DNA from: Escherichia coli
GTDB taxonomy: Bacteria; Pseudomonadota; Gammaproteobacteria; Enterobacterales; Enterobacteriaceae
Reading direction: 5' to 3' (one strand)
DNA length: 64,000 nucleotides
Assembly (NCBI RefSeq): GCF_016026235.1
Contig: NZ_CP065613.1
Shown: one piece after another, positions 1-28,645 of the stretch
Layout of the letters: each line of letters opens with the position of its first letter
How positions within the stretch are numbered: position 1 is the first letter of the stretch
Program-made: the position numbers and the translations under genes
The notes under the pieces: generated by a model
What the model was told of the DNA's origin: nothing
Database searches by the model: none
Seen by the model: the letters and a program-made list of their open reading frames with translations, nothing else

Positions 1-367
1 CAATATCATCTTTTTCTGACCGCAATGCCGTCGGTGGCGTCTTCAGAGAACCAGTAATTCTTCCCGGTAGCTTTCCTTTGTAGGTTATCCACACATTCTG
101 CGCCTCTAAAATTATGGGGCGCTTTTCCGGCGACTGCTCATCCCCTTCACATAACCCGGCAGCAACATCCAGGAATACCTGTCTGATTCTCATTCTGGCC
201 GCTGCCTCATAAAACTCCAGCGCGGCACCTTCAACACGGTCCAGCGAGATGTCCAGGTCAAAAATTTCACCGTCAAAGCGTTTTTTGTCCCGTAACGCTA
301 AAGTTACCGCAACTTTATTCTCAAAATTGCGGATCCCTTTCACAATCAGTTCATAGTTTTGTGTCAT
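1..367 (-). CDS. DUF826/YdfR-like prophage protein; the 5' part starts at 367 and the ORF runs off the left edge of the window
   Basis: Hand translation from ATG (complement of 365-367) gives MTQNYELIVKGIRNFENKVAVTLALRDKKRFDGEIFDLDISLDRVEGAALEFYEAAARM..., with no stop before the window edge. It closely resembles Qin prophage YdfR as I recall it. It lies directly downstream of the holin. Confidence 0.5.
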   Translation of the reverse strand, partial: MTQNYELIVKGIRNFENKVAVTLALRDKKRFDGEIFDLDISLDRVEGAALEFYEAAARMRIRQVFLDVAAGLCEGDEQSPEKRPIILEAQNVWITYKGKLPGRITGSLKTPPTALRSEKDDI

Positions 368-371
368 TGAA

Positions 372-587
372 TTACTCTCCCCGCGCAGCCTTACGCTTGT
401 CTTCTCTTATTTTGAAATACAGGTTAGTCAGATATGTCAGCAGCCCAAACAGCAGACTCCCCAGCACGCCTATTGCCGCCCACTGAGACGGGGAAACCCT
501 GTCCAGCAACTGCAGGAACCAGTAGCCCGTTCCCACCGCTGACGTGGTGTATGACACACCTGTTGTGATTTTTTCCATCTGGTCCAT
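372..587 (-). CDS. Class II holin (phage 21 S-type pinholin), 71 aa
   Basis: [71 protein letters not shown] matches the S21 holin pattern. It has two TM segments, a charged C-terminus and a dual-start Met1/Met4 motif. I trimmed it from the 106-aa track ORF. Confidence 0.8.
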
Positions 588-894
588 ACCCCGTCTCCCG
601 TTATCCGGAAGCTGACAACAATAAAAAAGCCACCAGTTAACTACTGATGGCTCTGATAACTCATGCAAGCGTCTCAGACGATCCACTGACACTACCGGTG
701 AGTTTAACGATACCTTCCATTTGACTGGCTCACTTTTTATGATGATGCCGGTGCATTTATCTCCAGCACCAGACTTTCTATCTCAACGCCATACGTTGCA
801 TTTTTGGTAATATCCGTCAGCGTCAGTGCATTTAGTCCCACTGCCAGACTGTCTTTTATGGCCTGGAATGCCGGGCCAGTACGATGACGTAGTA

Positions 895-1083
895 TCACTC
901 CGGCTCAGTTGCACCACTGACCACCACATCACCTTCTGCTGCAATCGCCTGCATCAGGGTATAAGGGGTTATGGCCACCGGACTACCAAACGGCTGCCAG
1001 CCCTCTTTCAGTTTATGTGTCAGCTTTTCCGCAAGATCTGACGGCGGCGCCGCCCTGACAACATCATAGTGTTTAAATGCCAT
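895..1083 (-). CDS. Small phage protein, DUF1737-like
   Basis: MAFKHYDVVRAAPPSDLAEKLTHKLKEGWQPFGSPV... contains the EGWQP(L/F)G motif typical of DUF1737 proteins found upstream of lambdoid lysis cassettes. An alternative start lies at 1098. Confidence 0.5.
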   Translation of the reverse strand: MAFKHYDVVRAAPPSDLAEKLTHKLKEGWQPFGSPVAITPYTLMQAIAAEGDVVVSGATEPE

Positions 1084-1343
1084 GGTTCTTTCCACCATCT
1101 AAAAAATAATTCTTTAAAATACCTGACATGTAATACAGAAAAAGCACAAAACCATACATTAAATAAAAACCTGATTATCAAGCAGATATGCATGGATAAA
1201 CTACAAGACGAGATATAAACCACCCTGCATTTAAATAAACAATAAACAACATCAGAAAAATAATTCTGCTCTATGGTTTACATTCAAAAATATCATTTAT
1301 ACTTTTCAGAACATCACCAGCAAGACATAAACAAGGAAACTAA

Positions 1344-1679
1344 ATGAAGTGGATTGTGATTGATACAGTTATCCAGCCATCATGCGGAATATCTTTTTCA
1401 GTCATATGGAGTAAAATAAAATTAATAATCTGGTATCAATCGGATGCTTTCTTACCTCCTGAAAGTATATTTACACTGACTCACACAGGCATCATGCTCA
1501 ATAACAAAGTGCTACCTGTAACCATTTACAACGTAGTACCATTCAATAAAACATTCTGGAATTTAATCAAAAACAGCCAGGAATGCCCTACAAATACAGA
1601 TAACGTATTGAATGAATGCTTTAATAACCGTTGCACTCTGCAAATATGTCCTTATGGACTAAAACAACAAAGTCCATAA
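1344..1679 (+). CDS. Hypothetical 111-aa protein (AT-rich moron, orientation opposite to late transcription)
   Basis: Complete ORF preceded by AAGGA 8 nt upstream and by a promoter-like TTTACA-17nt-TACTTT (about 1288-1316). An 11-bp-stem inverted repeat (ccttatggact/agtccataagg) spans the stop codon. I recognise no homologue. Confidence 0.4.
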
Positions 1680-1699
1680 GGAGTTTACTCACATCTGAC

Positions 1700-1735
1700 A
1701 AAATCAATATAAACAGCCCCTCCGGAGAGGGGCTG
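1700..1735 (-). terminator. Rho-independent terminator candidate in the late leader
   Basis: Hairpin cagcccctc-cgga-gaggggctg (1714-1735). On the minus strand it is followed by TTTATATTGATTTT. Confidence 0.45.
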
Positions 1736-2054
1736 GAGAGTGGCGCTATGTGCCATTGCATGGTGCCGGGTGCCTCCCGGTGAATTCAGTACCAGCACCT
1801 GAATCCGCGATTATCCCATATACCTACTCGCTGATTGCCCCTCCGCACAGGGGGATTCACCATGCCAGTTTCTTTTAACAAACTCCCCGCAAACCAGACA
1901 ACAGTCAACCGCCTGAATTGTGAAGTATTTAAAAATTTCTCCCGCTAACTGATACCCGGCTAACAGTCTGGCGTTTTCTTTTTCAGCAACGGGAAAGCAA
2001 CAACCCTGTTATCGTGTCGTCTGCTCTTCCTGATAAGCTAATGGCGGTTTGTGA

Positions 2055-2130
2055 TGGTGGCCCTTGCTGGATTTGAACCAGCGACCTGGCGATTATGAGT
2101 CGCTCGCTCTCACCACTGAGCTAAAGGGCC
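2055..2130 (-). tRNA. tRNA with CAU anticodon, ileX/ileZ-like (tRNA-Ile2, lysidine type) or Met
   Basis: The reverse complement GGCCCTTTAGCTCAGTGGTGAGAGCGAGCGACTCATAATCGCCAGGTCGCTGGTTCAAATCCAGCAAGGGCCACCA folds as a 76-nt cloverleaf. It has an encoded CCA end and the anticodon loop CTCATAA. It is very similar to E. coli ileX as I recall it. Confidence 0.85.
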
Positions 2131-2167
2131 GGGAGCAGAATAATAACGGTCCGTAATTAATTCCGCA

Positions 2168-2194
2168 ATAAAAAACCCGCTCGGCGGCGGGTTG
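2168..2194 (-). terminator. tR'-like intrinsic terminator downstream of PR'
   Basis: The minus strand reads AACCCGCCGCCGAGCGGGTT followed by TTTTTATT. Confidence 0.6.
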
Positions 2195-2240
2195 TAGAAA
2201 CTCTTCTAACGTCAGGCATAAAACGCCCATAGTTATGACG

Positions 2241-2268
2241 AATTTACCACAGATTCCGGAAAAATCAA
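2241..2268 (-). promoter_or_regulatory. PR'-like late promoter (Q-dependent antitermination site region)
   Basis: The minus strand reads TTGATT-16nt-TAAATT immediately after the Q stop codon. TAAATT equals the lambda PR' -10 element. Confidence 0.5.
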
Positions 2269-2273
2269 CCTTG

Positions 2274-3095
2274 TTACCTAGTTACCTTTTTTAACTGCCG
2301 CTCAGCCCATGCTTCTTCAATATCAAACCGGGTCACCAGCGCATCATAGAATTTCTTAACTGTTTTTTCCCATGACGCGCGTGTTATCTGGTTTGTCACC
2401 TCGCATATAGCATTAAATGCCTCCGTTGATGGTAGTCTTTCATAGCCACGACCACCACAACGCTGGCAGTCTCTGATAACAGGCATACCACGTTTTACCG
2501 ACTCTTCACGATGAATGGCGACACCACGCCCACGGCAATCCTTACAGGCGGTGGAAACCTCACCCTTTCCGCCACACTCCGGACAGGCAACTTTTACCAC
2601 CTCCCTGACTTTTTTCCATTCTTCCCAGTAAGACGGATACACACCTTTCGTACACTTTGCCCATACCGGCGGCTTACCATCCGGATACTGGACCTTGTTT
2701 GTAAAAACTACGCTTTCAATAAATTTTTCCCCATAGCAACAAGGGCACTGCTTTTTACTCGCTGCGCTGCGGGCATAATCCTCAAAAGCGTACGAAGCCA
2801 TAATGCGCATCACTACCGGTTTTATTTCTGCCGGAAGTTTTCTCAACGCCGCCACACGATCGCACCGACTGAGTGCATAATCAGCCAGTAATTCTGTTGC
2901 CCGCGCCCTGTCATTCATACTGATGCCCATTTTCCCCAGGAACGCAGAAAACCCCATCTCAGCCCGATTCTGTGTCATGCCCTGCGCGGCCATCACATCA
3001 GTGATACTCAGCGCATCTTTTGACGTTGAGGCCGATGCATCGGTCAGGCAAGGGGATTTTGGGGAGTAGTATTTCGGTAAATCTTCCAGTTTCAT
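2274..3095 (-). CDS. Late antiterminator Q (Phage_antitermQ family, zinc-finger type)
   Basis: N-terminal YYSPKSP...DVMAAQGM and C-terminal YDALV...KKVTR are hallmarks of the family. It has repeated CxxCxGxG motifs. The ATGA overlap with rusA and the position upstream of PR'/tR' also fit. Confidence 0.8.
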   Translation of the reverse strand: MKLEDLPKYYSPKSPCLTDASASTSKDALSITDVMAAQGMTQNRAEMGFSAFLGKMGISMNDRARATELLADYALSRCDRVAALRKLPAEIKPVVMRIMASYAFEDYARSAASKKQCPCCYGEKFIESVVFTNKVQYPDGKPPVWAKCTKGVYPSYWEEWKKVREVVKVACPECGGKGEVSTACKDCRGRGVAIHREESVKRGMPVIRDCQRCGGRGYERLPSTEAFNAICEVTNQITRASWEKTVKKFYDALVTRFDIEEAWAERQLKKVTR

Positions 3096-3466
3096 TTTTT
3101 GACCTGCTCTTCATGCATTATGGGGTAAATCTTCACCCCCAGACGTCCTCCAGATACTGGCTGACCACGAACGATATTGATTTCATCAAACTGCTCATCG
3201 TCCATTAACACTCCCGCATGTGTCAGTGCATCCAGTGGTGCTTTCAGGATATTGTCCAGGTCACGACGGCGCTTATCCGGTGGCTCTGCAATAATCTTTA
3301 TCGCCAGTCTTCCGGACAGGCTTAATTTCAGTCGCTGCTGACGGACAATAAGCGCCACATCCCGGCGATAACGCTCACCGGCTTTTGATACAAAATATGT
3401 GTTGTCACGACGTCGCCAGTAAGTATTCACCGTCGGCGGATAAGGTAAAATAAACTCATGGCGCAT
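3092..3466 (-). CDS. rusA: Holliday junction resolvase RusA
   Basis: PYPPTVNTYW... DKRRRDLDNILKAPLDALTHAGVLMDDEQ matches the RusA catalytic DxD/K region. Confidence 0.85.
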   Translation of the reverse strand: MRHEFILPYPPTVNTYWRRRDNTYFVSKAGERYRRDVALIVRQQRLKLSLSGRLAIKIIAEPPDKRRRDLDNILKAPLDALTHAGVLMDDEQFDEINIVRGQPVSGGRLGVKIYPIMHEEQVKK

Positions 3467-3723
3467 CAGCGCAGCACCTCCTGCACCAGTTTTTCAAACT
3501 TTCCGACTCTGGTTTCCAGCTCTGCCACACAGTCCACCAGCTCATCTACTGCTTTCTGTGCGCGATGCTTCGCCTGCATCAGTTCCCGAAGCGCGGGTAC
3601 CATATCTTTACGGATAGCATCTTTTGTTATGCCCGTTTTTTCGAGTTGTTCAGCATGACGCAGCATTTCCTGCGCGTGTTTACGCAATTGTTCAGGGGTA
3701 AAAGTCATTGTCTGGTTGTTCAA
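3466..3723 (-). CDS. Hypothetical coiled-coil phage protein (85 aa)
   Basis: ORF translationally coupled at both ends (TGATG and ATGA overlaps) within the PR operon. Confidence 0.5.
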   Translation of the reverse strand: MNNQTMTFTPEQLRKHAQEMLRHAEQLEKTGITKDAIRKDMVPALRELMQAKHRAQKAVDELVDCVAELETRVGKFEKLVQEVLR

Positions 3724-4817
3724 AAGAAACGCTCCATCTTACTGCTGTCAGTTCGTTTATTACTGTATCTGCGCGGATTGCCGGGCTTCATGGGAGTGGA
3801 AAGCACCCGTGCACTTTCCTGGTCCACAGGCAGAAAATGTCCGTTATAAAAACGCCGGTAAATCGTTCCCAGAGAACCGTTACGTTGTTTCGTGATATTG
3901 ATTTCTGCGATGCCCCTGGCCTGCGTATCCGGGTTGTACACTTCATCCCTGTAAAGCATCAGAATGATGTCTGCATCCGCCTCTATTTCTCCGGAATTTT
4001 TCAGGTCTGAGTTCATGGGACGTTTATTGGGTCTGGACTCCACACCGCGGGAGAGCTGGCTCAGCGCAATCAACGGAAAACCACCGGATTTTGCCAGGCC
4101 TTTAAGCCCCTTTGAGATTTCACCCACGGCAAGGTCATGACGCCCCGTGGTTCGGGTTTTTATCAGCCCGAGATAATCAACCACCACCAGCGCCGTTTCC
4201 GGATGTTTAATCAGATGGTGTTTCGTTGTTGCGCATATCTCATCAATGGTCAGGTTCGCCTGGTCCACCATCCAGATATTGCGCCCGGTCATCCGCCCCA
4301 CCCCTTGTGAGAAACGCGCCCAGTCTTCATCTTCAAAGTGAGCCACAGATTTCAGGCGTGATACTGGCATCCCTCCAGCCGCAGACACCATACGTTCACC
4401 AATCTGGATGTTCGCCATCTCCATGGTGAACAGAAGCACACCATGCCCCTGCTCAGTCACCTTGTCGATGATGTCCAGCGCAAGTTCGGTTTTCCCCATC
4501 GAAGGACGAGCCGCAATAAATACCAGGTCGCCGGGCTCCATGCCGCCTGTTTTTGCGTCCAGTTCATCAATACCGGTCATCAACGTCCTGGATTTCTCCA
4601 GTCCCTGATTCCGGCATTCAACACGCTCAACCACCTCCGGAAGCACATCATCAATATGTACCGACTGAATAACGCCCTTTTCCGTCGACAATGAGGCCAT
4701 CATGTTCTGTGCATCCTTAAGAGCATCTTCAGCTGCTTCACAGGTATGCGCATTGAGGTAGCCTGAGTTTAACGGACACTCCTTCCTGAAATAGAATGGC
4801 ATCAGAAGGAGCTAATA

Positions 4818-5120
4818 ATGAGCAGAAAAAACCAACGTTACTCTAAAGAGTTCAAAGCCGAAGCTGTCAGAACGGTTCTTGAAAATCAACTTTCGATCAG
4901 TGAAGGCGCTTCCCGATTATCCCTTCCTGAAGGCACTTTAGGACAATGGGTTACCGCCGCCAGAAAAGGGCTCGGTACTCCTGGTTCCCGCACGGTGGCT
5001 GAACTGGAATCTGAAATTCTGCAACTGCGTAAGGCGTTAAATGAAGCTCGCCTTGAGCGAGATATATTAAAAAAAGCAACAGCGTATTTTGCACAGGAGT
5101 CGCTGAAAAATACGCGTTAA
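4818..5120 (+). CDS. IS600 OrfA (HTH transposase subunit)
   Basis: 100 aa, MSRKNQRYSKEFKAEAVR..., an IS3-family OrfA. It has Asn5 where the other two copies have Thr. Confidence 0.9.
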   Translation: MSRKNQRYSKEFKAEAVRTVLENQLSISEGASRLSLPEGTLGQWVTAARKGLGTPGSRTVAELESEILQLRKALNEARLERDILKKATAYFAQESLKNTR

Positions 5121-5155
5121 TCGAACAATGGCGACAACAATTTCCCATTGAAGCG

Positions 5156-5974
5156 ATGTGTCAGGTATTTGGTGTATCCAGGAGCGGTTATTACAACTGG
5201 GTACAGCATGAACCCTCAGACAGAAAACAAAGTGATGAGCGGCTAAAACTGGAGATTAAGGTGGCACATATCCGCACTCGCGAAACATATGGAACCCGGC
5301 GGCTCCAGACGGAGCTGGCAGAGAATGGCATCATCGTTGGTCGTGACCGACTGGCACGTCTTCGTAAGGAGCTAAGGCTACGCTGTAAGCAGAAACGCAA
5401 GTTCAGAGCGACTACGAACCCGAACCACAATCTGCCAGTTGCGCCAAATCTGCTGAACCAGACGTTCGCTCCTACAGCACCAAATCAGGTCTGGGTGGCG
5501 GACCTGACGTATGTTGCCACACAGGAGGGATGGTTGTACCTCGCTGGCATCAAAGATGTTTATACGTGCGAAATTGTCGGCTACGCCATGGGAGAGCGCA
5601 TGACAAAAGAGCTGACAGGTAAAGCCCTGTTTATGGCGCTCAGGAGCCAGCGCCCACCTGCCGGGCTAATCCACCACTCTGATCGAGGTTCACAGTACTG
5701 CGCATACGATTACCGGGTCATACAGGAGCAGTCTGGTCTGAAAACATCAATGTCGCGTAAAGGTAACTGTTACGACAACGCTCCGATGGAAAGCTTCTGG
5801 GGAACGCTGAAAAATGAGAGCCTGAGCCACTATCGTTTTAATAACCGGGATGAAGCCATCTCAGTAATACGGGAATACATTGAGATTTTCTACAATCGTC
5901 AGCGTCGTCACTCTCGTCTGGGGAATATCTCCCCGGCAGCCTTCAGGGAAAAATATCATCAGATGGCTGCTTAA
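5156..5974 (+). CDS. IS600 OrfB (DDE integrase domain; expressed as an OrfAB fusion by -1 frameshift)
   Basis: 272 aa carrying the rve-type motifs VWVADLTY, HSDRGSQY and DNAPMESFW. Confidence 0.9.
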   Translation: MCQVFGVSRSGYYNWVQHEPSDRKQSDERLKLEIKVAHIRTRETYGTRRLQTELAENGIIVGRDRLARLRKELRLRCKQKRKFRATTNPNHNLPVAPNLLNQTFAPTAPNQVWVADLTYVATQEGWLYLAGIKDVYTCEIVGYAMGERMTKELTGKALFMALRSQRPPAGLIHHSDRGSQYCAYDYRVIQEQSGLKTSMSRKGNCYDNAPMESFWGTLKNESLSHYRFNNRDEAISVIREYIEIFYNRQRRHSRLGNISPAAFREKYHQMAA

Positions 5975-6374
5975 AAAAAGAACAAATGGTAGTGTCCGCT
6001 ATTGCCAGTACACCTCACATCGCGTAATTTCTGTAATGCCTCGTTCAGTGTTTTTTCTGCATCGCGCAGTGCGGCATTGCGCCGCAACGCTGCAACATAG
6101 TGCTCCAGTGAAGACTTCACCCAGGTTTTACGCCCGGTATCAGTAATCACCGGGGCAAGTTCTGGCATCTCATTGCACAACAGCACAGGATCAATCACGC
6201 CGGACACACGGGCCTGTCTGCAGATGCCTGTGTAGATATCCCGGTACGGTCGTACAGAAAAAACGTCCGCCGGTAGTGTGGCCAGAATATCCATCACTTC
6301 AGGATCTGCTCCGCGCAGAAAGAACGCGCCGATGACAGCGCCTTCAAGGTCATCGTTACGCCATACTGGAGTTG

Positions 6375-7253
6375 TCATGCAGCCACACCTCTGATACGAG
6401 AACGGTAACTGGGCCAGTTAAACGACAACCAGTTGCGTCCCCCGTCTGTGATCCTGTCGGCAATTCGGGGACTGATGAACGCCCACAACTCTTCCGGTGA
6501 GAGGTTACTGATCAGAATGGTGGGCAAGATACTTTCGTACCTGGCGTTGATAATTTCCTGCAAAATAGCCATTTCAGCCGCGCTGCCAAACTGAACGCCA
6601 ACTTCGTCGATGATCAGCAAATCCATTGACGCATAACGCTCAATAACTTCATCCGCTGTTTTTTCGCTGTCATTCCGCCAGCAATTTTTCACAGCACGGG
6701 TAAGGCGCATCACGTCGGTGATCTCCACACTGGCCAGATAGTTACGGATGATGTGTTTTGCCATAGCCACAGCCAGATGATTTTTTCCGGTACCACAACT
6801 GCCGGTCATAACAAGACTGGTACCGTTCTCCAGCATATCTGGCCAGTTCTCCGCATAGCGGCGACAGGCCGCAAGATTTCTGGCTGCGTCAGGATTAACC
6901 TCCAGATAATTATCAAACTCGCAGTCCCGAAAACGCAGGGCAATTCCGGCGTTATCAGTCAGCTCTTCCGCCTTGATGGACGACAGCTCCATGGTCAAAT
7001 CGTTGGCCTCAGCGATTAAGCAGTCAGGGCAGCATGAAATTTTTTCTCTGTCCTCGCCATTACGATCGCTCCACACCAGTATATGCGTGTGATATTCGCC
7101 ATGTTTTTCGCAATATCCGCGACCTTCACGCATCAGGCAGGAACGATAAGGCCATGGCTTTTCGCCCTTCTGAGCAAATGCAATCTCTGCCCGTAACTCA
7201 TCCATTCGCGCCTGTAGTCTTTTTTGTTGTTCACGCAGGTTAAACGTCATCAT
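6375..7253 (-). CDS. DnaC/IstB-like AAA+ helicase loader with N-terminal Cys-rich region
   Basis: Walker A is GSCGTGKNHLA and Walker B is LLIIDEVG. GAGGTGA lies upstream of the ATG at 7253, and an alternative GTG lies at 7262. It sits between the O-like and DnaB-like genes. Confidence 0.75.
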   Translation of the reverse strand: MMTFNLREQQKRLQARMDELRAEIAFAQKGEKPWPYRSCLMREGRGYCEKHGEYHTHILVWSDRNGEDREKISCCPDCLIAEANDLTMELSSIKAEELTDNAGIALRFRDCEFDNYLEVNPDAARNLAACRRYAENWPDMLENGTSLVMTGSCGTGKNHLAVAMAKHIIRNYLASVEITDVMRLTRAVKNCWRNDSEKTADEVIERYASMDLLIIDEVGVQFGSAAEMAILQEIINARYESILPTILISNLSPEELWAFISPRIADRITDGGRNWLSFNWPSYRSRIRGVAA

Positions 7254-7263
7254 CGCTGTCACC

Positions 7264-8172
7264 TCAGAATGTCAGTTTGTCACTGGATTTACCGAATTTG
7301 TCAGACATGGCTCCCAGGCCAGCCAGGACATCGACCTGTCGCTGTCGCCCACCTCCGGGAGCGGCTGGCTGTTGCCAGAAGTCTTCGAAGTGACGATCGG
7401 GTCCAAAGAACGTCGCTGCCTGCTTCACGAACTGTGTGCCGTTATTTCCTGTGGCACGTATCCAGGCGGCATACCGCTTCACGCCATCAAGCATGGTCTC
7501 CGGTTTTATTCCCTCCCTGATACGGGCTTTCCAGGCTTTGAAGGCTGCGGATTTTGAGTTACCACCAGCACGTTTTGGATATTCCTGCCAGGCCTGTTCA
7601 AATTCCGGTGAATATTCCTGTCGGGCAGAACGCGCTGGTGCAGACGCGTCAGCGGATGCGCCAATAGTGTTTTTACTCTCTGTAGTATTCTCTGAAGTAA
7701 TCTCTGTTGTATTCTCTGTAAGATCGAAATTGGTTTTCCCTTCTCCGCGGCGAGGGGTTTCCCGTGTCCGCGGTGAAGGCTTTCCCTCCTCCGCGAAATT
7801 GGGTTTTACAGTTTCCCGAAAACGGGTTTCCCCATTTCGGGAAAACTGATTGTTTTCATTGATAATTTCATTAAGGCGCTCACAATCTATACGGTAGAAC
7901 ATTTTGTGCTCAAGACGCTTGTTGGTTTCAACCAAAATGCCTCTGGACACAAGATGCTTACGCGCTACAGCCTGTTGTTCAAATGTAAGTCCGGTTTCGT
8001 GTTGTATCTCTTCACGCGTTTTATGTACGCCTTCCGCTGCATGTGCTTTATCCTGCCAGTAAAAAATCTGACCAAAGAAAATAACAGCGTGCGGACTTCC
8101 CATGTATTTAACGAGCCCAGGGTAATAAGCAACCGGATGTCCAAAATCGAGCAGAAGATCAGACGGACGCAT
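7264..8172 (-). CDS. Phage replication initiation protein (O-like / winged-helix N-terminal domain)
   Basis: Supported by its position upstream of the loader and helicase. The N-terminal region is wHTH-like, followed by an acidic/Thr-rich linker and the C-terminal motif YPKRAGGNSKSAAFKAWKARI. GGGAGG lies 5 nt upstream of the ATG at 8172. Confidence 0.55.
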   Translation of the reverse strand: MRPSDLLLDFGHPVAYYPGLVKYMGSPHAVIFFGQIFYWQDKAHAAEGVHKTREEIQHETGLTFEQQAVARKHLVSRGILVETNKRLEHKMFYRIDCERLNEIINENNQFSRNGETRFRETVKPNFAEEGKPSPRTRETPRRGEGKTNFDLTENTTEITSENTTESKNTIGASADASAPARSARQEYSPEFEQAWQEYPKRAGGNSKSAAFKAWKARIREGIKPETMLDGVKRYAAWIRATGNNGTQFVKQAATFFGPDRHFEDFWQQPAAPGGGRQRQVDVLAGLGAMSDKFGKSSDKLTF

Positions 8173-8392
8173 AGCCACCTCCCAGGCGTTTAAACATTTT
8201 TCCGGACTGAAACGCCACCAGCGGATAACTCAGGGTATGAGTACGTCCCTGAACCTGGCAGACAACCTTCTGGCTTTCTGTATTGACCAGGCAAACCCGC
8301 AGAACGTGGCCGTTGCTGGTGGTGAACCACTGCCCCACTCGGGGGCAACGGTTGTATCGGTGATACAGGGAATTAACGATGCGGCGAATCAT
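8159..8392 (-). CDS. Small phage protein, DUF4222-like (77 aa)
   Basis: ATGA coupling to the upstream Rha gene. GQWFTTSNGHVLRVCLV... follows the same pattern as the ORFs at 9977-10153 and 17560-17802. Confidence 0.4.
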   Translation of the reverse strand: MIRRIVNSLYHRYNRCPRVGQWFTTSNGHVLRVCLVNTESQKVVCQVQGRTHTLSYPLVAFQSGKMFKRLGGGYASV

Positions 8393-8952
8393 GGACGCAC
8401 CTCCTTGTCAGAACCATTCAGCCTGGAATCAACAAGTGCAGCACCAAAAACAGCATCACCTACACGGTCGTACAGTTTGCTGGCCAGCGGAGATTCAACA
8501 GCCTTAAGCATTGGGTAAAGCTGGCTTGTCCAGATTTGATGGATTTCACGCAAATGCAGGTATACGCCTCTGGCGTTTTGTGCGACAGATGACATGTCAG
8601 CCGCACCAGCTCCTGATAAGCTCCTCTCCATCTGGTTAAAGGCATTGATGTATGCCTCTTTGAACCGGGCGGCACGTTTACCAGTGAAGCCCATAGCAAG
8701 GAAGGCGAAGCCGTCGCGGGTGATTTGGTAGCAGGGAAGTTTGCGAGTACCGCCGTTGGGCTGGCGTACCAAAATTGATGTCTCCGCAAAATTGCGGGCA
8801 CAAAACTCTGGAGAACAATCCAAAATGCGGATCTTTTTCAGAACATCGTCATGACGTTTAGAGAAGAAGTTGGCAACAGCCAGGGATGAAGTAACAGCCT
8901 GACCATCAACGATGGCAATTTCAGGTTGAGTGAGGGTTGGGATCGTAGCCAT
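8389..8952 (-). CDS. Phage regulatory protein Rha family (187 aa)
   Basis: MATIPTLTQPEIAIVDGQAVTSSLAVANFFSKRHDDVLKKIR... has the Rha N-terminal signature. AAGAGG lies upstream of the ATG at 8952. It is only the 3' third of the 620-aa track ORF. Confidence 0.75.
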   Translation of the reverse strand: MATIPTLTQPEIAIVDGQAVTSSLAVANFFSKRHDDVLKKIRILDCSPEFCARNFAETSILVRQPNGGTRKLPCYQITRDGFAFLAMGFTGKRAARFKEAYINAFNQMERSLSGAGAADMSSVAQNARGVYLHLREIHQIWTSQLYPMLKAVESPLASKLYDRVGDAVFGAALVDSRLNGSDKEVRP

Positions 8953-9306
8953 GATGGCAGCCTCTTTGGTGATTTTTAATAACTCACCACCAAAGCTTCT
9001 CACGGCAATAGGTGGTGAGACGTACAGGGGTGAGAAACCGGTCACCAAAGAACCCGGCCCAACCGAAGTTGGCCCTGCACGCCCCACCATAATTTGGGCG
9101 TAATGCTGCTCATGACACAAAAAAACCGCAAGAGCGCGGTTGTGCGCTTTGGTGAATTCCGGGTTCTCACGCCCGGCACCCGCTTTATAAGGTGCGGAGA
9201 CAGTGTAACGTCCCGAAATTGCAGAATCAATATCAAAATGTTGTAGCTGTGGACAACGCGAAGCCTTGTTGTTATTGTTTACAACAAGAACCAGAGGAAG
9301 CTTTAA

Positions 9307-9594
9307 ATGCCATCCAGACTGTATAAACAGTTCATCCGTCATCTCGGTGAATCTGAATACATACGAATCCGCATATGGGAAGTGGAGCCTGCTGTATTGG
9401 GTAGCCAGCACAACTACAAATACAGCATGGCTTATGTCGTTGATGGCATGTGTGTGATGCGTTACGACAACGAACGGGGTAAAGGCGATCACAAACACAT
9501 TGGTAGTCAGGAAGTCAGCACCAGCTTTGTCACCATTGAACAACTGCTCGCTGATTTTCTGGCTGACGTTGAATCCATCCGCAGAGGTATCTGA
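9307..9594 (+). CDS. TumE-like (DUF6516) putative toxin, 95 aa
   Basis: KYSMAYVVDGMCVMRYDNERGKGDHKHIG...FVTIEQLLADFLADVESIR matches the DUF6516/TumE pattern (YDNERGKGDH.H) as I recall it. Confidence 0.6.
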   Translation: MPSRLYKQFIRHLGESEYIRIRIWEVEPAVLGSQHNYKYSMAYVVDGMCVMRYDNERGKGDHKHIGSQEVSTSFVTIEQLLADFLADVESIRRGI

Positions 9595-9595
9595 C

Positions 9596-9955
9596 ATGAG
9601 AACCGTAACAATCCGAATCGAGTCAATGGATAATTTCACGGCTGATGTGCTGTCTGCGTTCCAGGAAGCAGCTACCGGAGCAAAAGCAACCAGAGAAAAC
9701 GTTATTTCATTTCCTGACTGGCAAATGATGCATAAGGTACTGACACCAAAACGCATGGACATTCTGATGGCAATGACTGGTGCCGGAGAAATGTCCATCC
9801 GAAAAATTGCAGCCCTGGTTGGACGTGATGTAAAAAGCGTGCATACTGACGTGACCGCACTCATCAGCAACGGTTTACTGGAAAAAAGCGAGCGCGGAAC
9901 GTCATTCCCGTATGACGACATCCACTTTGATTTTACGCTGGGCAAGGCGGCGTAA
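9596..9955 (+). CDS. HTH DNA-binding protein, TumA / COG4190-like putative antitoxin (119 aa)
   Basis: The ATG lies 1 nt after the upstream stop codon. MRTVTIRIESMD...LTPKRMDILMAMTGAGEMSIRKIAALVGRDVKSVHTDVTALISNGLLEK is a winged HTH. Confidence 0.6.
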   Translation: MRTVTIRIESMDNFTADVLSAFQEAATGAKATRENVISFPDWQMMHKVLTPKRMDILMAMTGAGEMSIRKIAALVGRDVKSVHTDVTALISNGLLEKSERGTSFPYDDIHFDFTLGKAA

Positions 9956-9976
9956 TTTTTCGTATATACCGTGCCG

Positions 9977-10153
9977 TCATTCCGGCGGCGCTTCACACTC
10001 CACAAAATCACGCCTGAACAACCACAACGGGCTGAAACATTCGTACGGATAGCCGTCACGCAGGTAAATGACTCGCTGCGTTTCAGACTCCCAGCGTATA
10101 ACGTGGACACGACGCCCCCTTCCGTCACGGAACCAGCGATTGAGGACTTGCAT
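9977..10153 (-). CDS. Small phage protein, DUF4222-like (58 aa, below the ORF-track cutoff)
   Basis: Hand translation gives MQVLNRWFRDGRGRRVHVIRWESETQRVIYLRDGYPYECFSPLWLFRRDFVECEAPPE. It lies directly downstream of the second Rha-type gene. Confidence 0.5.
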   Translation of the reverse strand: MQVLNRWFRDGRGRRVHVIRWESETQRVIYLRDGYPYECFSPLWLFRRDFVECEAPPE

Positions 10154-10172
10154 AAATTACCCGTAAACATTG

Positions 10173-10886
10173 TCACACCTTCCAGCCAGTAGCCTGAAAC
10201 AGGCCCATTCTCGGGTGATACCAGCGGGTACCACGCTGAACGGCACCACACATCATGTGATGAAACGCCTTCAGAAACGGTTCCACAGCAACAATTTCAC
10301 GACGTGCCAGTAATCCATCTGGCGTCAAAAATTCATGAGTGTCTGTCGGGATGTTGTATGCATTTACAAGCGTGCGACATTTCGCATCTGACATACCGGT
10401 TTTTGCTTTCAGCTGGCGATATCCGGCATAGCCCTCTCGAATGGTACCCTTTTTGATTTGCTCAACTGTTTCGGCTACGTGGCTGATTTTTTCTTCCACC
10501 TGAGTGATCCGTTTCTGCTGACGAACAGCCTCGAGCGCCATTGCGGCCACCATTTCGATTTCGCTCATTGGTTTGCGGATCTGTTCTTCCAGTTCGCGCC
10601 AGCGATCTACCAGGCGAGCAGTGAATTCAGGACAGAGCTGTGCGACGACAATGATGCTGTCGCGCTTACCTTGTTCTCCTTCAAACAGGTAATGCTCATA
10701 TTGAACTTTAAAACCTAAGTTATTGATTCTTTCGGAAACCTCAATTTGAGGAGACCGGACAACGCCACCTTTGGCTAATGTTTCAATAGTGCGTTTCACA
10801 TTGTCATGACGCTTACCCACCAGTTCTGCGATCTCAACGCTGGTCATGGATGCTTTGTCGTTAAAAATTGCGGTGTTCACTGCCAT
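10173..10886 (-). CDS. Rha-family regulator / antirepressor-like protein
   Basis: MTSVEIAELVGKRHDNVKRTIETLAKGGV... is a Rha-type N-terminus, followed by a coiled-coil and a KilAC-like C-terminus. The start is uncertain (ATG 10886, GTG 10880 or track start 10922), and AAGGAG lies adjacent. Confidence 0.7.
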   Translation of the reverse strand: MAVNTAIFNDKASMTSVEIAELVGKRHDNVKRTIETLAKGGVVRSPQIEVSERINNLGFKVQYEHYLFEGEQGKRDSIIVVAQLCPEFTARLVDRWRELEEQIRKPMSEIEMVAAMALEAVRQQKRITQVEEKISHVAETVEQIKKGTIREGYAGYRQLKAKTGMSDAKCRTLVNAYNIPTDTHEFLTPDGLLARREIVAVEPFLKAFHHMMCGAVQRGTRWYHPRMGLFQATGWKV

Positions 10887-10999
10887 CTCCTTACGGATAA
10901 ATTCTTTTAAGATTCCGCACATTCGTACTTGTTGGTGCCGAACCTTCCTTCAGTTATCCTTTTGATCCCTATAAACAAAAGAACCAAAGGAGGTTCGAC

Positions 11000-11293
11000 A
11001 TGAAAGTTCAGGCCGTTGGTTTATTCTGGTTTCGCGATGCGATTCAGTATCATGAGCTCAAAAATATTTTTACTGATGCTGATGTGCTCTCCGACAGTTA
11101 CACCGAGTGGAAACACGACGCTGAAAAATTGATTAAGCGTGTCGAAAGAAGCGGGCAACGAGTTATTAAAGTTGAAGCGGATACAGCCGAGTTCATCACC
11201 TGGTGTACAAGCGAAGGCATTGGACTCAATGCCGAAGGTAGAATGCAGTTCGCATCCTTTAAGGCTTACCAACAACTTCTCAGCGAACGCTAA
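11000..11293 (+). CDS. Hypothetical 97-aa protein (moron antisense to the PR operon)
   Basis: Strong RBS in AAAGGAGGTTCGACATG. The composition is protein-like. An 8-bp-stem hairpin at 11300-11324 follows the stop codon. Confidence 0.55.
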   Translation: MKVQAVGLFWFRDAIQYHELKNIFTDADVLSDSYTEWKHDAEKLIKRVERSGQRVIKVEADTAEFITWCTSEGIGLNAEGRMQFASFKAYQQLLSER

Positions 11294-11363
11294 TGTGATT
11301 GGGGCAATCGAAATTGTTGCCCCATCGTATTTAATAGTTATTTTTTCGCTCATATCACCACCA

Positions 11364-11573
11364 TCACTTCTCATCCTCTGTGTGCGCTAAGCTTGGATGT
11401 GTATATGGAATGTTCGGATCCAGATGGCAGAGAATGGCAACATCCTCCGGAACGCCCCGCGTTTTCCACTTTCCAACTCCCTGACTACCACGAGGCTTTC
11501 CTTTCTTTGGGAACCTGCGGCCAATAGCGGCATTGGTTTTAAATTGAGTTTTTAATATTTCATAAAGGGTCAT
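11364..11573 (-). CDS. Cro-like regulator (YdaS/Cro HTH family), 69 aa
   Basis: Divergent from the cI-like gene across a 110-bp operator region. First gene of the rightward (minus-strand) operon. GSQGVGKWKTRGVPEDVAILCHLD resembles the YdaS-type HTH. Confidence 0.65.
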   Translation of the reverse strand: MTLYEILKTQFKTNAAIGRRFPKKGKPRGSQGVGKWKTRGVPEDVAILCHLDPNIPYTHPSLAHTEDEK

Positions 11574-11684
11574 TCTTTAGCCTCACACCGGATACTCTGT
11601 TATCCAAGAATGTTAAACATGAGAATCCAAAGTATCAAGATATTCTGTTACTTTAGTATCAGCAGCCATGAAAGGAGAAGAAAA

Positions 11685-12341
11685 ATGAAATCTTTAGGTG
11701 AACGGCTAATCAACGCACGACAAAAAGCTGGGTTAACGCAAGATGCGTTGGCTAAAAAAGCAGGGGTCACCAGAGTTGCAATCAGTAAAGCCGAGCAAGG
11801 CCTTACAAAAAGTTTCAACGGTGACACCCTTTTTAAAGTCGCAGCTGCACTGCAGTGTTCACCGCAGTGGCTTCAGAACGGAGATGAGAAAGGTAAGCAT
11901 TGGGAAAATAATGTTAAGAGTTGCCCCCAGAGGGACACAGCACACTCTTACCCTGTAATTAACTGGGTTCAGGCAGGATTATTCACAACTGCAGGTGATG
12001 ACTACAACATGTATGATCAGGATAACTGGAGGCATTCTGTAAAATACGCTGGTGAGAGGGGGTTCTGGCTGGAAGTGCACGGAGACTCAATGACTTCGCC
12101 TATAGGAATAACATTTCCTGAAGGAATGTCGATCCTTGTCAACCCAGATAAAGAAGTTTTTTCAGGGTGTTACGTCATTGCCAGAAAAAAATCCACCAAT
12201 GAAGCAACATTCAAAAAATATATTTCTGAAATGGGAAAGGCGTTTCTAAAGCCCCTTAATCCACAATACCCAATCATAGAAATGGACAATGATTGCGAAA
12301 TAGTAGGCGTTGTGGTTGATGCCAGATGGGATATTTTCTGA
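11685..12341 (+). CDS. CI-like prophage repressor (N-terminal Xre HTH + S24 LexA-type autopeptidase)
   Basis: The HTH is LTQDALAKKAGVTRVAISKAEQG. The S24 motifs are a VQAG cleavage-site-like segment, GDSMTSP and FKKY. The RBS is AAAGGAGAAGAAAAATG. Trimmed from the track start at 11610. Confidence 0.85.
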   Translation: MKSLGERLINARQKAGLTQDALAKKAGVTRVAISKAEQGLTKSFNGDTLFKVAAALQCSPQWLQNGDEKGKHWENNVKSCPQRDTAHSYPVINWVQAGLFTTAGDDYNMYDQDNWRHSVKYAGERGFWLEVHGDSMTSPIGITFPEGMSILVNPDKEVFSGCYVIARKKSTNEATFKKYISEMGKAFLKPLNPQYPIIEMDNDCEIVGVVVDARWDIF

Positions 12342-16222: not shown

Positions 16223-17041
16223 ATGTGTCAGGTATTTGGTGTATCCAGGAGCGGTTATTACAACTGGGTACAGCATGAACCCTCAGACAGAAAACAAAGT
16301 GATGAGCGGCTAAAACTGGAGATTAAGGTGGCACATATCCGCACTCGCGAAACATATGGAACCCGGCGGCTCCAGACGGAGCTGGCAGAGAATGGCATCA
16401 TCGTTGGTCGTGACCGACTGGCACGTCTTCGTAAGGAGCTAAGGCTACGCTGTAAGCAGAAACGCAAGTTCAGAGCGACTACGAACCCGAACCACAATCT
16501 GCCAGTTGCGCCAAATCTGCTGAACCAGACGTTCGCTCCTACAGCACCAAATCAGGTCTGGGTGGCGGACCTGACGTATGTTGCCACACAGGAGGGATGG
16601 TTGTACCTCGCTGGCATCAAAGATGTTTATACGTGCGAAATTGTCGGCTACGCCATGGGAGAGCGCATGACAAAAGAGCTGACAGGTAAAGCCCTGTTTA
16701 TGGCGCTCAGGAGCCAGCGCCCACCTGCCGGGCTAATCCACCACTCTGATCGAGGTTCACAGTACTGCGCATACGATTACCGGGTCATACAGGAGCAGTC
16801 TGGTCTGAAAACATCAATGTCGCGTAAAGGTAACTGTTACGACAACGCTCCGATGGAAAGCTTCTGGGGAACGCTGAAAAATGAGAGCCTGAGCCACTAT
16901 CGTTTTAATAACCGGGATGAAGCCATCTCAGTAATACGGGAATACATTGAGATTTTCTACAATCGTCAGCGTCGTCACTCTCGTCTGGGGAATATCTCCC
17001 CGGCAGCCTTCAGGGAAAAATATCATCAGATGGCTGCTTAA
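16223..17041 (+). CDS. IS600 OrfB
   Basis: Identical to copy 1 OrfB. Confidence 0.9.
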   Translation: MCQVFGVSRSGYYNWVQHEPSDRKQSDERLKLEIKVAHIRTRETYGTRRLQTELAENGIIVGRDRLARLRKELRLRCKQKRKFRATTNPNHNLPVAPNLLNQTFAPTAPNQVWVADLTYVATQEGWLYLAGIKDVYTCEIVGYAMGERMTKELTGKALFMALRSQRPPAGLIHHSDRGSQYCAYDYRVIQEQSGLKTSMSRKGNCYDNAPMESFWGTLKNESLSHYRFNNRDEAISVIREYIEIFYNRQRRHSRLGNISPAAFREKYHQMAA

Positions 17042-17150
17042 AAAAAGAACAAATGGTAGTGTCCGCTATTGCCAGTACACCTCAGTGCCAATACACCATT
17101 TATCCAGATTAAATAACTTATATGCCCGGCAGGCCGCCGGGCTAAGGGAA

Positions 17151-17528
17151 ATGCAGATGAACACCCAGAATACTCAACCGCAAATAATGAACTATGACCC
17201 GAATCTGACGTCATGCGGACGCATGGCAAAACAAACCGTTCGATTAACTTTCGGACTATGGGAATACCGCGAAACATTCGAAGTTACTGTCGGCGGCAAT
17301 CTGACCGGACTGGATGTTATCAGTTGCGCTATTGAAAGCCTGTACGCAACGCTGCCTTATGAAGAAGTCGAGGATGAGCGAACAGGGGAAACAGATATCA
17401 TGGCCACCATTAATATTGGCGAACTGATATGTCAGGATGAAGACCTGTCCGGAGAGCTCTGGCTTGCCGGGATGCTTATCTCAGCAGAAATTATCAGTAT
17501 TGAACCCGCTACAAACATACGGCTCTGA
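17151..17528 (+). CDS. Hypothetical acidic prophage protein (about 125 aa)
   Basis: AAGGGA RBS, with ATG at 17151 or 17157. It is the 3' part of a track ORF that begins artificially inside IS600. Confidence 0.5.
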   Translation: MQMNTQNTQPQIMNYDPNLTSCGRMAKQTVRLTFGLWEYRETFEVTVGGNLTGLDVISCAIESLYATLPYEEVEDERTGETDIMATINIGELICQDEDLSGELWLAGMLISAEIISIEPATNIRL

Positions 17529-18197: not shown

Positions 18198-19476
18198 TTT
18201 AATGCCATGAAGTATGTAAGCTCGTATCGCTCTTGGGCGTCTGGAGGTATCAATGGATAAAGTCAAATATCCAACAGGCGTCGAAAACCACGGTGGCACA
18301 TTACGCATCTGGTTTAATTTTAAAGGTAAACGTGTCAGGGAAAATCTTGGTGTCCCTGACACTGCCAAGAACAGGAAGATCGCCGGAGAGCTGCGGACAT
18401 CTGTATGTTTTGCCATTCGTACAGGAAATTTTGATTATGCTGCGCAGTTCCCTGACTCTCCTAACCTCAAGGCTTTTGGGGTAAATAAAAAAGAAATTAC
18501 GGTGAAAGAACTTGAAGAAAAATGGCTGGATCTGAAACGAATGGAAATCTCTGCAAATGCATTCAATCGCTATGAATCCATTGCAAGGATGATGGTTCCG
18601 AAGATTGGTGGCAACCGACTGGTATCAGCAGTGACCAAAGAGGAATTGCTGTATATCAGGAAAGATTTGCTGACCGGATACCAAAATCCAACAAAAGGTA
18701 AAGCTCCAGTAAAAGGACGAAGCGTTGTCACAGTAAATTATTACATGACAACAATCGCTGGAATGTTTCAGTTTGCTGCAGATCACGGTTACATAGAAGC
18801 AAATCCCTTCGAGGGAATTAAGCCTCTTAAAAGAGCCAGGGCAGAACCAGATCCGCTAACTCGTGACGAATTTATTCGCCTGATAGATGCTTGCCGGCAT
18901 CAGCAGACAAAAAACCTGTGGTCATTGGCTGTGTACACAGGAATGCGTCATGGTGAACTGGTCTCCCTGGCCTGGGAAGATATCGATCTGAAAGCAGGAA
19001 CAATTACTATCAGGCGCAATTATACGAAACTCGGTGAGTTCACTCTACCTAAAACTGAAGCAAGTACAAACAGGGTTGTGCATCTTATCCAGCCCGCTAT
19101 CAGTGTCCTGAAAAATCAGGCTGAAATGACAAGACTGGGTAAGCAGCACAACATCAAGGTTCAACTACGTGAATATGGACGTTCAGTAAATCATGAATGT
19201 ACTTTCGTATTTAACCCCCAGGTGGTTAGAAAAAGCAAACAGGTAGGTTTTATCTACAAGGTAGATTCCATTGGCGACTCATGGGAAACAGCCATTAAAC
19301 GTGCAGGCATCAGGCATCGAAAGGCATACCAGTCACGACACACTTATGCGTGCTGGTCATTATCTGCCGGAGCAAATCCAAGCTTCATTGCCAGCCAGAT
19401 GGGGCATGCAAGTGAGGTAGCCTGAGTTTAACGGACACTCCTTCCTGAAATAGAATGGCATCAGAAGGAGCTAATA

Positions 19477-19814: not shown

Positions 19815-20633
19815 ATGTGTCAGGTATTTGGTGTATCCAGGAGCGGTTATTACAACTGGGTACAGCATGAACCCTCAGACAGAAAACAAAGTGATGAGCG
19901 GCTAAAACTGGAGATTAAGGTGGCACATATCCGCACTCGCGAAACATATGGAACCCGGCGGCTCCAGACGGAGCTGGCAGAGAATGGCATCATCGTTGGT
20001 CGTGACCGACTGGCACGTCTTCGTAAGGAGCTAAGGCTACGCTGTAAGCAGAAACGCAAGTTCAGAGCGACTACGAACCCGAACCACAATCTGCCAGTTG
20101 CGCCAAATCTGCTGAACCAGACGTTCGCTCCTACAGCACCAAATCAGGTCTGGGTGGCGGACCTGACGTATGTTGCCACACAGGAGGGATGGTTGTACCT
20201 CGCTGGCATCAAAGATGTTTATACGTGCGAAATTGTCGGCTACGCCATGGGAGAGCGCATGACAAAAGAGCTGACAGGTAAAGCCCTGTTTATGGCGCTC
20301 AGGAGCCAGCGCCCACCTGCCGGGCTAATCCACCACTCTGATCGAGGTTCACAGTACTGCGCATACGATTACCGGGTCATACAGGAGCAGTTTGGTCTGA
20401 AAACATCAATGTCGCGTAAAGGTAACTGTTACGACAACGCTCCGATGGAAAGCTTCTGGGGAACGCTGAAAAATGAGAGCCTGAGCCACTATCGTTTTAA
20501 TAACCGGGATGAAGCCATCTCAGTAATACGGGAATACATTGAGATTTTCTACAATCGTCAGCGTCGTCACTCTCGTCTGGGGAATATCTCCCCGGCAGCC
20601 TTCAGGGAAAAATATCATCAGATGGCTGCTTAA
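19815..20633 (+). CDS. IS600 OrfB
   Basis: 272 aa. It has one substitution relative to copies 1 and 2 (EQFGLK versus EQSGLK). Confidence 0.9.
   Translation: MCQVFGVSRSGYYNWVQHEPSDRKQSDERLKLEIKVAHIRTRETYGTRRLQTELAENGIIVGRDRLARLRKELRLRCKQKRKFRATTNPNHNLPVAPNLLNQTFAPTAPNQVWVADLTYVATQEGWLYLAGIKDVYTCEIVGYAMGERMTKELTGKALFMALRSQRPPAGLIHHSDRGSQYCAYDYRVIQEQFGLKTSMSRKGNCYDNAPMESFWGTLKNESLSHYRFNNRDEAISVIREYIEIFYNRQRRHSRLGNISPAAFREKYHQMAA

Positions 20634-27889: not shown

Positions 27890-28645
<756 letters not shown>

Follow-up and report, generated by a model that had tools for sequence, protein, structure and literature searches.

The segment described here lies between the late antiterminator gene Q and the lysis genes of a prophage in yecE, within a stretch of 64,000 nucleotides of Escherichia coli DNA (hereafter, the window). 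The phage late region was confirmed to lie on the minus strand, in the order Q, a PR'-like promoter, the terminator tR', a tRNA-Ile2 gene and then the DUF1737 and holin genes. The features that an earlier sequence-only reading had listed were all present at the positions given. In the direction of late transcription, the segment contains:

2274 to 3095, minus strand: Q late antiterminator, 273 aa, QuuQ/YdfT-like, with a DnaJ-type CxxCxGxG zinc module
2241 to 2268, minus strand: candidate PR' (TTGATT at 2268-2263, 16 nt, TAAATT at 2246-2241)
2165 to 2193, minus strand: tR' intrinsic terminator (7-bp stem, 6-nt loop, TTTTTTATT)
2055 to 2130, minus strand: tRNA-Ile2, anticodon CAU, ileZ/ileX type (ARAGORN; Rfam tRNA, 72.5 bits)
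1960 to 2001, minus strand: 3' remnant of a DUF3927 gene with the junction of a 713-bp deletion (2000/2001), from alignment with 042 and CFT073
1705 to 1894, minus strand: STnc100-family sRNA gene (Rfam RF02076), terminated by the hairpin at 1714-1735
1344 to 1679, plus strand: iraL, 111 aa, assigned from identity to CFT073, NCBIfam, a PDB match and dN/dS
1275 to 1343, plus strand: iraL sigma-70 promoter and 5' UTR, on which the CFT073 5' RACE end was mapped
895 to 1098, minus strand: DUF1737 gene (Pfam PF08410, 62.2 bits), which opens the series of late-operon ORFs beyond the moron region
372 to 692, minus strand: class II (P21 S-type) holin (Pfam PF04971, 110 bits, residues 40-102)

The Q product matched Pfam PF03589 (183.7 bits) and PF00684 (28.4 bits), and its homologues in 042 and CFT073 are annotated as 'antitermination protein'. 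The candidate PR' begins 5 nt past the Q stop codon, with a strong terminator ∼48 nt downstream. The two hexamers of this promoter are indeed found after Q, as had been proposed, but they match the consensus at 8 of 12 positions, lie under the threshold of the promoter scan and are absent from its list; across the region, two promoter-like sites were found against 3.3 expected. PR' is a candidate called here by its position and not by the strength of its sequence, and may be active. Terminator-like sites numbered four against 1.2 expected, and tR' consists of a hairpin (2193-2174 on the minus strand) followed by TTTTTTATT, with a predicted energy of -11.2 kcal/mol. In CFT073, IS200C directly follows the T-run of tR', whereas the window lacks this element. 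To our knowledge, no qut consensus has been defined for a Q of this type. The PF03589-type Q, the tR' hairpin and the tRNA bear out the suggestion that the layout is lambdoid and like that of the Stx phages.

The tRNA agreed at all 76 positions (100%) with the tRNA-Ile found in Stx2c phage 2851 and matched K-12 ileX at 68 of 76 positions (89.5%), compared to 52 of 77 (67.5%) for metT and likewise 67.5% for metU. It has the acceptor pairs C4-G69 and C5-G68, as does ileX, while metT has U4-A69 and A5-U68. Ikeuchi et al. in 2005 are said to have found that these two C-G pairs are determinants for TilS. The homologues in 042 and CFT073 are called tRNA-Ile by PGAP. The comparison supports the earlier assignment of the CAU tRNA to the Ile2 type and not to Met, and the molecule would read AUA after lysidine modification.

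Between Q and DUF1737 (1099-2273), iraL is the sole ORF of at least 50 aa; since there is no other, this interval carries no stx, in agreement with the absence of an Stx-like ORF reported earlier. The interval from the tRNA to STnc100 is 160 bp (1895-2054). The position of stx, between the tRNAs and STnc100, is empty in the window, and alignment indicates that its content was removed by a 713-bp deletion. The segment absent relative to 042 and CFT073 holds a tRNA-Arg and the 5' part (most) of the DUF3927 gene, and in 042 an 8-bp repeat, CAACAACC, is present at both of its ends. An exact-match search for the junction in a collection of species-representative genomes found nothing, a result that is uninformative because each species is said to be represented there by a single genome and GTDB places Shigella within E. 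coli. Further along the late operon, the holin gene probably encodes 71 aa from an internal Met (372-587), and the annotations of 042 and CFT073 each contain a 'class II holin' of 216 nt. GC content is 27.8% in 1099-1343, 34.5% in the iraL ORF and 49.6% in 1680-2054, against 49% for the window, so that the AT-rich tract noticed earlier is present but extends over ∼600 bp instead of ∼900 bp. The yecE gene is truncated, and the prophage bears marks of decay, namely IS600 copies and a truncated DnaB-like helicase gene. Among complete E. coli genomes, none matched 80% or more of positions 1-12000, and the IS600 copies, three in number, may point to a Shigella or EIEC background.

The STnc100 gene matched its Rfam model over the full length (RF02076; 132.4 bits against a gathering score of 47, E = 4e-30, model positions 1-206 of 206). 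It ends in a 9-bp hairpin (1714-1735) and a U-run (-20.3 kcal/mol), and the T-run is present on the minus strand only. This hairpin had been recognized as a second terminator-like element, and it exists, but the STnc100 gene, whose terminator it is, had been overlooked. STnc100 is convergent with iraL, its terminator abutting the iraL stop codon, and it also lies beside an ira gene in CFT073, 042, phage 640R1 and Stx2c phage 2851; in all four and in the window, the ira stop codon is 10-25 nt from the STnc100 terminator. A promoter scan of the minus strand upstream of STnc100 gave no sigma-70 site. Alignment of four STnc100 copies revealed a conserved upstream block, TCACAATTC...TTGAC.GTTG.CTGG, with no consistent -10, and the sRNA may be processed out of longer transcripts. 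As in the STnc100/PasD family of prophage sRNAs (RF02076; bioRxiv 10.64898/2026.05.13.724894), the match covers the entire model and the gene lies in a prophage late region; its position in the window is the one that, in Stx2 phages, follows stx2 at a distance of 75 nt. STnc100 has been found by RT-qPCR in STEC vesicles (PMC12370729), and no target or function has been established for it (PMC12370729; bioRxiv 10.64898/2026.05.13.724894).

We then turn to the gene on the opposite strand. As judged from its sequence, the plus-strand ORF of 111 aa at 1344-1679 is iraL, encoding an anti-adaptor of RssB. Its product was identical at 111 of 111 residues to IraL of E. coli CFT073 (WP_000871291.1), aligned over residues 1-110 of 111 with NCBIfam NF007393 (the IraM model; 162 bits, with the cut-off at 121) and matched PDB 8TWD, the structure of IraM bound to RssB (E = 9e-32). 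The sequence-only reading had described an orphan ORF, a description that identity to the characterized CFT073 protein (PMC4045071) overturns. To separate IraL from IraM, a coding region has been required to match CFT073 iraL along its full length at 95% identity or more (PMC4045071), and the ORF falls on the IraL side (111/111 aa, vs 62% identity to K-12 IraM). All five Cys residues (positions 14, 81, 92, 97 and 102) are invariant in K-12 IraM and in the phage 2851 paralogue, and dN/dS values of 0.10-0.16 for iraL against these two paralogues showed strong purifying selection across the paralogues. [quoted passage not shown] The remaining four changes are conservative (T13S, L75I, H63N and I64V) and all fall in the clusters facing the linker and the C-terminal domain of RssB. 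The ORF is conserved in other genomes: of 5426 complete E. coli genomes, 1445 carried the iraL locus, which in 1418 of these matched at ≥95% identity and was always annotated as an anti-adapter protein.

The control sequences of iraL are also those of CFT073. A -10 element, TATACT, lies at 1298-1303, the -35 is inside GGTTTACA (1275-1282), and a Shine-Dalgarno sequence, AAGGA, is found at 1333-1337, 6 nt ahead of the ATG. The 5' RACE end of the CFT073 iraL mRNA, ACATCACCAGCAAGGCATAAACAAGGAAACCA (PMC4045071), maps to 1311-1342 with 30 of 32 nucleotides identical and 2 mismatches, which would place the transcription start at 1311 and give a 5' UTR of 33 nt. From -100 to +33, 131 of 134 positions (98%) are identical to CFT073; the three substitutions are at -1, +15 and +31, and two of them are common to 042. 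An AT-rich, oppositely oriented moron with its own sigma-70 promoter and ribosome-binding site, as first proposed, is therefore real.

[quoted passage not shown] By extension from this literature, in which the protein is identical, the product would be expected here too to bind RssB and stabilize RpoS, and we infer that iraL is expressed in this strain. The region is very probably the stretch from Q to the lysis genes of a defective lambdoid prophage in yecE, with iraL as a moron expressed in the lysogen. Transcription of iraL would run rightward from position 1311, opposing the phage late operon; IraL would bind the adaptor RssB, so that RpoS (sigma-S) is not handed to the ClpXP protease, and blocking of RssB would raise RpoS during exponential growth.

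The island in potB of CFT073 that carries iraL (Hryckowian et al., 2014; PMC4045071) is the closest known system, with an identical protein, the same promoter, transcription start and 5' UTR, and likewise Q, tRNA-Ile2, STnc100, an iraL on the opposite strand, DUF1737 and holin as neighbors. The window differs in the prophage site (yecE and not potB), in lacking the 713 bp with tRNA-Arg and DUF3927 as well as the IS200C at tR', and in the three substitutions between -1 and +31. Stx2c phage 2851 (FM180578) has a similar order, in which Q, a short terminated leader, tRNA-Ile2, STnc100, an IraM/IraL paralogue on the opposite strand and the lysis genes follow one another. It carries stxAB and three tRNAs, however, as against no stxAB and one tRNA in the window, and its Q is of a different type, with no BLASTP similarity to the window Q. 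The phage 2851 paralogue, which is unannotated in FM180578, is 73.6% identical to the window IraL. The gene order in phage 2851 (tRNAs, stx2cAB, STnc100, then the paralogue) indicates that an ira gene forms a separate module next to stx and can be present together with it, and the ORF is accordingly not an occupant of the stx slot, as had been supposed.

Of the other explanations for the gene, one is that it is intact but silent prophage cargo, kept off, for instance, by H-NS acting on the AT-rich DNA or by convergent transcription of STnc100, with no role in this strain. In favor of this reading are the defects of the prophage (IS600 insertions and a shortened helicase gene), the 27.8% GC of the DNA upstream of iraL, and the repression of K-12 iraM by H-NS. 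We nevertheless regard silence as very unlikely, since the intact ORF, Shine-Dalgarno sequence and promoter match alleles that are active in CFT073 and S. sonnei, selection across the paralogues is strongly purifying, and CFT073 iraL is active despite an IS200 that disrupts the adjoining late region.

A highly improbable alternative is that the gene is the equivalent of K-12 iraM, dependent on PhoPQ and induced by Mg2+ starvation, and not of the constitutive log-phase IraL type. The two proteins belong to one NCBIfam family, the PGAP annotation reads 'IraM', and K-12 IraM (YcgW; PDB 8TWD, PMC10844676) shares with IraL its family, NF007393, its length class and five Cys residues, in addition to the 62% identity. 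The promoter region of K-12 iraM is unrelated, however, and that gene is located next to e14 and has neither Q nor a tRNA nor STnc100 as a neighbor. Upstream of the ATG, alignment of K-12 iraM with the window iraL was not convincing, so that a control region common to the two cannot be claimed; the window DNA there agrees with the promoter of CFT073 iraL at 98% of positions. [quoted passage not shown] The confinement of RssB-contact changes to the linker and C-terminal-domain clusters argues for the IraL type as well.

That the ORF is an unknown lysogenic-conversion or virulence gene which replaced stx and is driven strongly by the late promoter on induction is scarcely credible, for although it sits between Q/PR'/tR'/tRNA and the lysis genes, in the general region where Stx phages carry toxin genes, and is of 34.5% GC in a window of 49%, its protein is identical to characterized IraL, it is antisense to the late transcript, the phage 2851 paralogue coexists with stx2c downstream of STnc100, and log-phase cells express it from a promoter of its own without induction (PMC4045071). 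Read-through from PR' cannot make iraL mRNA because of this antisense orientation, and the high expression on induction that had been anticipated is unlikely.

The arrangement of PR' and tR' would give a short RNA in lysogens, and resembles that of lambda 6S/StxS (PMC7547250) in having a constitutive-looking promoter and a strong terminator within ∼70 nt, directly after Q. A role for this RNA as a StxS-like activator of rpoS was rejected, there being no signal in BLASTN or RNAduplex. Compared by BLASTN with the phage 2851 DNA between Q and the tRNA, the sequence gave only a 31-nt patch (87% identity), situated in the upstream flank of the tRNA, beyond which it has no homology to the StxS region. 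RNAduplex pairing of the 41-nt unstructured part with the K-12 rpoS leader was predicted at -24.9 kcal/mol, compared to -23.5 ± 2.8 kcal/mol for shuffled sequences, 28% of which did equally well; the predicted pairing is no better than for shuffled sequence. Longer inputs of the two RNAs to duplexfold gave uninterpretable giant loops.

With iraL taken as a lysogen-expressed moron, its conserved convergence with the late operon could represent a lysogeny/lysis switch for RpoS control, with a link through codon supply besides, although we consider this proposal, drawn from gene arrangement, unlikely. In the lysogen, iraL would be freely transcribed and late transcription would halt at tR' and the STnc100 terminator; upon induction, Q-modified polymerase would pass both terminators and cross iraL in antisense, turning IraL off. 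AUA accounts for 6 of the 13 Ile codons of iraL, and the adjacent AUA-reading tRNA could aid its translation. Neither the switch nor the codon-supply idea has a prior report in the cited literature.

The components themselves, that is iraL, tRNA-Ile2 of the ileZ type, STnc100 and the Q/PR'/tR' layout, have all been described previously, and the locus is in this sense an ordinary one. The value of the analysis for annotation is that the ORF should be labeled iraL, an RssB anti-adaptor gene, and not an orphan or a candidate for the toxin slot, and that the hairpin at 1714-1735 should be assigned to the sRNA gene. Genes of the ira family emerge as recurrent neighbors of the stx slot, and Stx2c phages have such a copy that is not annotated; this provides context for studies of how lambdoid prophages tune the RpoS response of their host.

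The plus-strand ORF of 111 amino acids at 1344-1679, taken for an orphan gene in the sequence-only reading, is iraL, characterised in 2014, and the finding is therefore already known. The product is identical to IraL of CFT073 at 111/111 residues and 62% identical to K-12 IraM, matches NCBIfam NF007393 at 162 bits (cut-off 121) and aligns with the IraM chain of PDB 8TWD with an E-value of 9e-32. Homologous ORFs in E. coli genomes carry the PGAP label "anti-adapter protein IraM", and IraL was described as an IraM paralogue from UPEC CFT073, encoded on its potB prophage island (Hryckowian et al. 2014, PMC4045071). Every listed element was found, the late region of the prophage is on the minus strand, and the proposed Stx-phage-like late-control architecture holds up.

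Features of iraL and the late-control region
2274-3095, minus strand: Q (Pfam Antitermination protein Q, 183.7 bits)
2268-2241, minus strand: candidate late promoter PR', TTGATT-16-TAAATT
2193-2165, minus strand: terminator tR', a GC-rich 7-bp hairpin followed by TTTTTTATT
2130-2055, minus strand: tRNA with anticodon CAU
1894-1705, minus strand: STnc100-family sRNA gene (Rfam RF02076, full-length, 132.4 bits, gathering score 47)
1735-1714, minus strand: 9-bp hairpin
1344-1679, plus strand: iraL, 111 aa, five Cys
1298-1303, plus strand: iraL -10, TATACT
1275-1282, plus strand: iraL -35, within GGTTTACA
1098-895, minus strand: DUF1737 gene
within 692-372, minus strand: P21-S-type holin

The PR' hexamers match the consensus at just 8/12 positions and fall below the promoter-scan threshold, and PR' is a candidate assigned by position rather than by sequence strength. 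The AT-richness ascribed to some 900 bp here is real, but the strongly AT-rich part spans only ∼600 bp (GC 27.8% for 1099-1343, 34.5% for the ORF and 49.6% for 1680-2054). CFT073 carries an insertion directly 3' of the tR' T-run, an IS200C with its STnc490 RNA (L003, the CFT073 locus, 16567-17160), which parts PR'/tR' from the tRNAs; iraL of CFT073 is nonetheless experimentally active.

The earlier view of the ORF as a self-promoted moron is borne out, since both the mapped start and the promoter region match those of CFT073. The 5' RACE end of iraL mRNA, ACATCACCAGCAAGGCATAAACAAGGAAACCA (PMC4045071), could be placed at 1311-1342 with two mismatches, giving a 33-nt 5' UTR that is consistent with the complementing fragment "-100 to +33" of that study. 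This fragment is identical at 131/134 positions between the window and CFT073, differing at -1, +15 and +31; E. coli 042 has the same bases as the window at -1 and +31. An AAGGA Shine-Dalgarno sequence lies 6 nt upstream of the ATG. In phage vB_EcoS-640R1 the sequence TTTACA has a C-to-T change, which may be the "-35 point mutation" that PMC4045071 mentions for iraL2 of JJ1886.

Deletion of iraL lowers log-phase RpoS in both CFT073 and Shigella sonnei, RpoS stability returns when iraL is supplied under its native promoter, and in a two-hybrid assay IraL binds RssB through the RssB N-terminal domain only (PMC4045071). [quoted passage not shown] That study lists 14 contact residues of IraM, and ten are identical in IraL, including 5/5 contacts to the N-terminal domain; the conservative changes T13S, L75I, H63N and I64V fall in clusters touching the linker and C-terminal domain. 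This pattern, as far as residue comparison can indicate, fits the reported N-terminal-domain-only binding.

Of 5426 complete E. coli genomes, 1445 contain the 481-bp segment comprising promoter, ORF and terminator, 1418 of them at ≥95% identity. Among IraL, K-12 IraM and the paralogue of Stx2c phage 2851, dN/dS was 0.10-0.16, and iraL is under purifying selection. The five Cys residues (C14, C81, C92, C97 and C102) are invariant across the three proteins. Four of them (C81, C92, C97 and C102) fall in the C-terminal tail (1584-1649, IraL residues 81-102). The tail was removed to obtain the 8TWD structure, whose description calls it flexible and less conserved; this Cys-rich tail of IraL/IraM may be a metal-binding knuckle.

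The second terminator-like hairpin, at 1735-1714, is indeed a hairpin, but its T-run is on the minus strand only and it is the terminator of the STnc100 sRNA gene. STnc100 and iraL are convergent, with 25 nt between the iraL stop codon and the STnc100 3' end. The pair also occurs in CFT073, 042 and phage 640R1, and is absent at the K-12 iraM locus. A plus-strand ORF at 1750-1878, annotated by PGAP as a partial 'hypothetical protein' in 042 and CFT073 and as a 70-aa ORF in the record of phage 640R1, runs wholly antisense to STnc100; the call is probably spurious. In phage 640R1, STnc100 is duplicated in tandem between the tRNA and the IraL gene (4362-4550 and 4826-5019 of its locus, L005), indicating that the tRNA-to-ira slot is highly mosaic among otherwise similar prophages.

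The reading of the CAU tRNA as Ile2 holds up: the sequence is identical at 76/76 positions to the tRNA-Ile of phage 2851, 89.5% identical to K-12 ileX as against 67.5% to metT, and shares with ileX the C4-G69 and C5-G68 pairs absent in metT.

The placement of the ORF in the stx cargo slot does not stand. In phage 2851 the gene order is Q, tRNA-Ile, tRNA-Arg, tRNA-Arg, stx2cA, stx2cB, STnc100, IraL paralogue and lysis genes, and the stx position is thus between the tRNAs and STnc100. STnc100 begins 75 nt past stx2cB, and the intact paralogue (107 aa, 73.6% identical; plus strand of FM180578 locus L004, 5001-5324) lies just downstream of stx2cB, on the opposite strand and 10 nt from STnc100. By tblastn, IraL-like genes, mostly unannotated, were found in 46 phage records, 32 of them named Stx2-, Stx2a- or Stx2c-converting phages. 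The ira gene is a separate module that neighbours stx and coexists with it.

The true stx position in the window is a 160-bp remnant, 1895-2054. Against 042 and CFT073, the interval from STnc100 to the tRNA is shortened in the window by a clean deletion of 713 bp (junction 2000/2001; missing segment 4002-4714 of L001, the locus that carries it). The lost DNA holds a tRNA-Arg and the 5' portion of a small DUF3927 gene. In 042 the segment lies between copies of an 8-bp direct repeat, CAACAACC, which suggests a microhomology-mediated deletion.

Integration of the prophage in yecE was confirmed by a 5'-truncated yecE (20860-21585, plus strand; model positions 32-272 of 272) adjoining an IS600 and the integrase (18253-19425); cmoA, cmoB, cutC and argS lie beyond. 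The prophage is defective. A DnaB-like helicase gene (3720-4802) lacking the N-terminal ∼120 residues abuts an IS600 at about 4818, one of three copies in the window. Positions 1-12000 are not matched over 80% or more of their length by any complete E. coli genome, which may point to a background resembling Shigella or EIEC. Adjacent Rfam matches to C4 antisense RNA (83 bits) and isrK (64 bits) at 9008-9195, minus strand, lie within a mechanically called 620-aa ORF (8389-10251) with a Rha-like C-terminal part, and resemble an immunity (c4/ant) or anti-Q module of the P1/Gifsy type in the prophage early region. MicL, C0465 and ES036 are chromosomal sRNA genes and ordinary core-genome features.

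Insertion sequences and chromosomal sRNA genes
4818-5974, 16223-17041 and 19815-20633: IS600 copies (IS3 family)
27811-28118, minus strand: MicL, within cutC (Rfam, 370 bits)
44460-44537, plus strand: C0465 (Rfam)
23832-23874, plus strand: ES036 (Rfam)

High expression of the ORF on prophage induction had also been proposed. By inference from its orientation, antisense to the late operon, iraL cannot be expressed by Q-dependent read-through from PR', which if anything would work against it. This orientation and the log-phase activity published for the iraL promoter argue against induction-driven expression. AUA accounts for 6/13 Ile codons of iraL, and an AUA-reading tRNA lies alongside. It is conceivable, though we consider it unlikely, that the conserved convergent layout of iraL, STnc100 and the late operon, together with an AUA-rich iraL beside this tRNA, couples IraL output to the lysogeny/lysis state. 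Such regulatory coupling would be the sole unreported angle that the evidence leaves.
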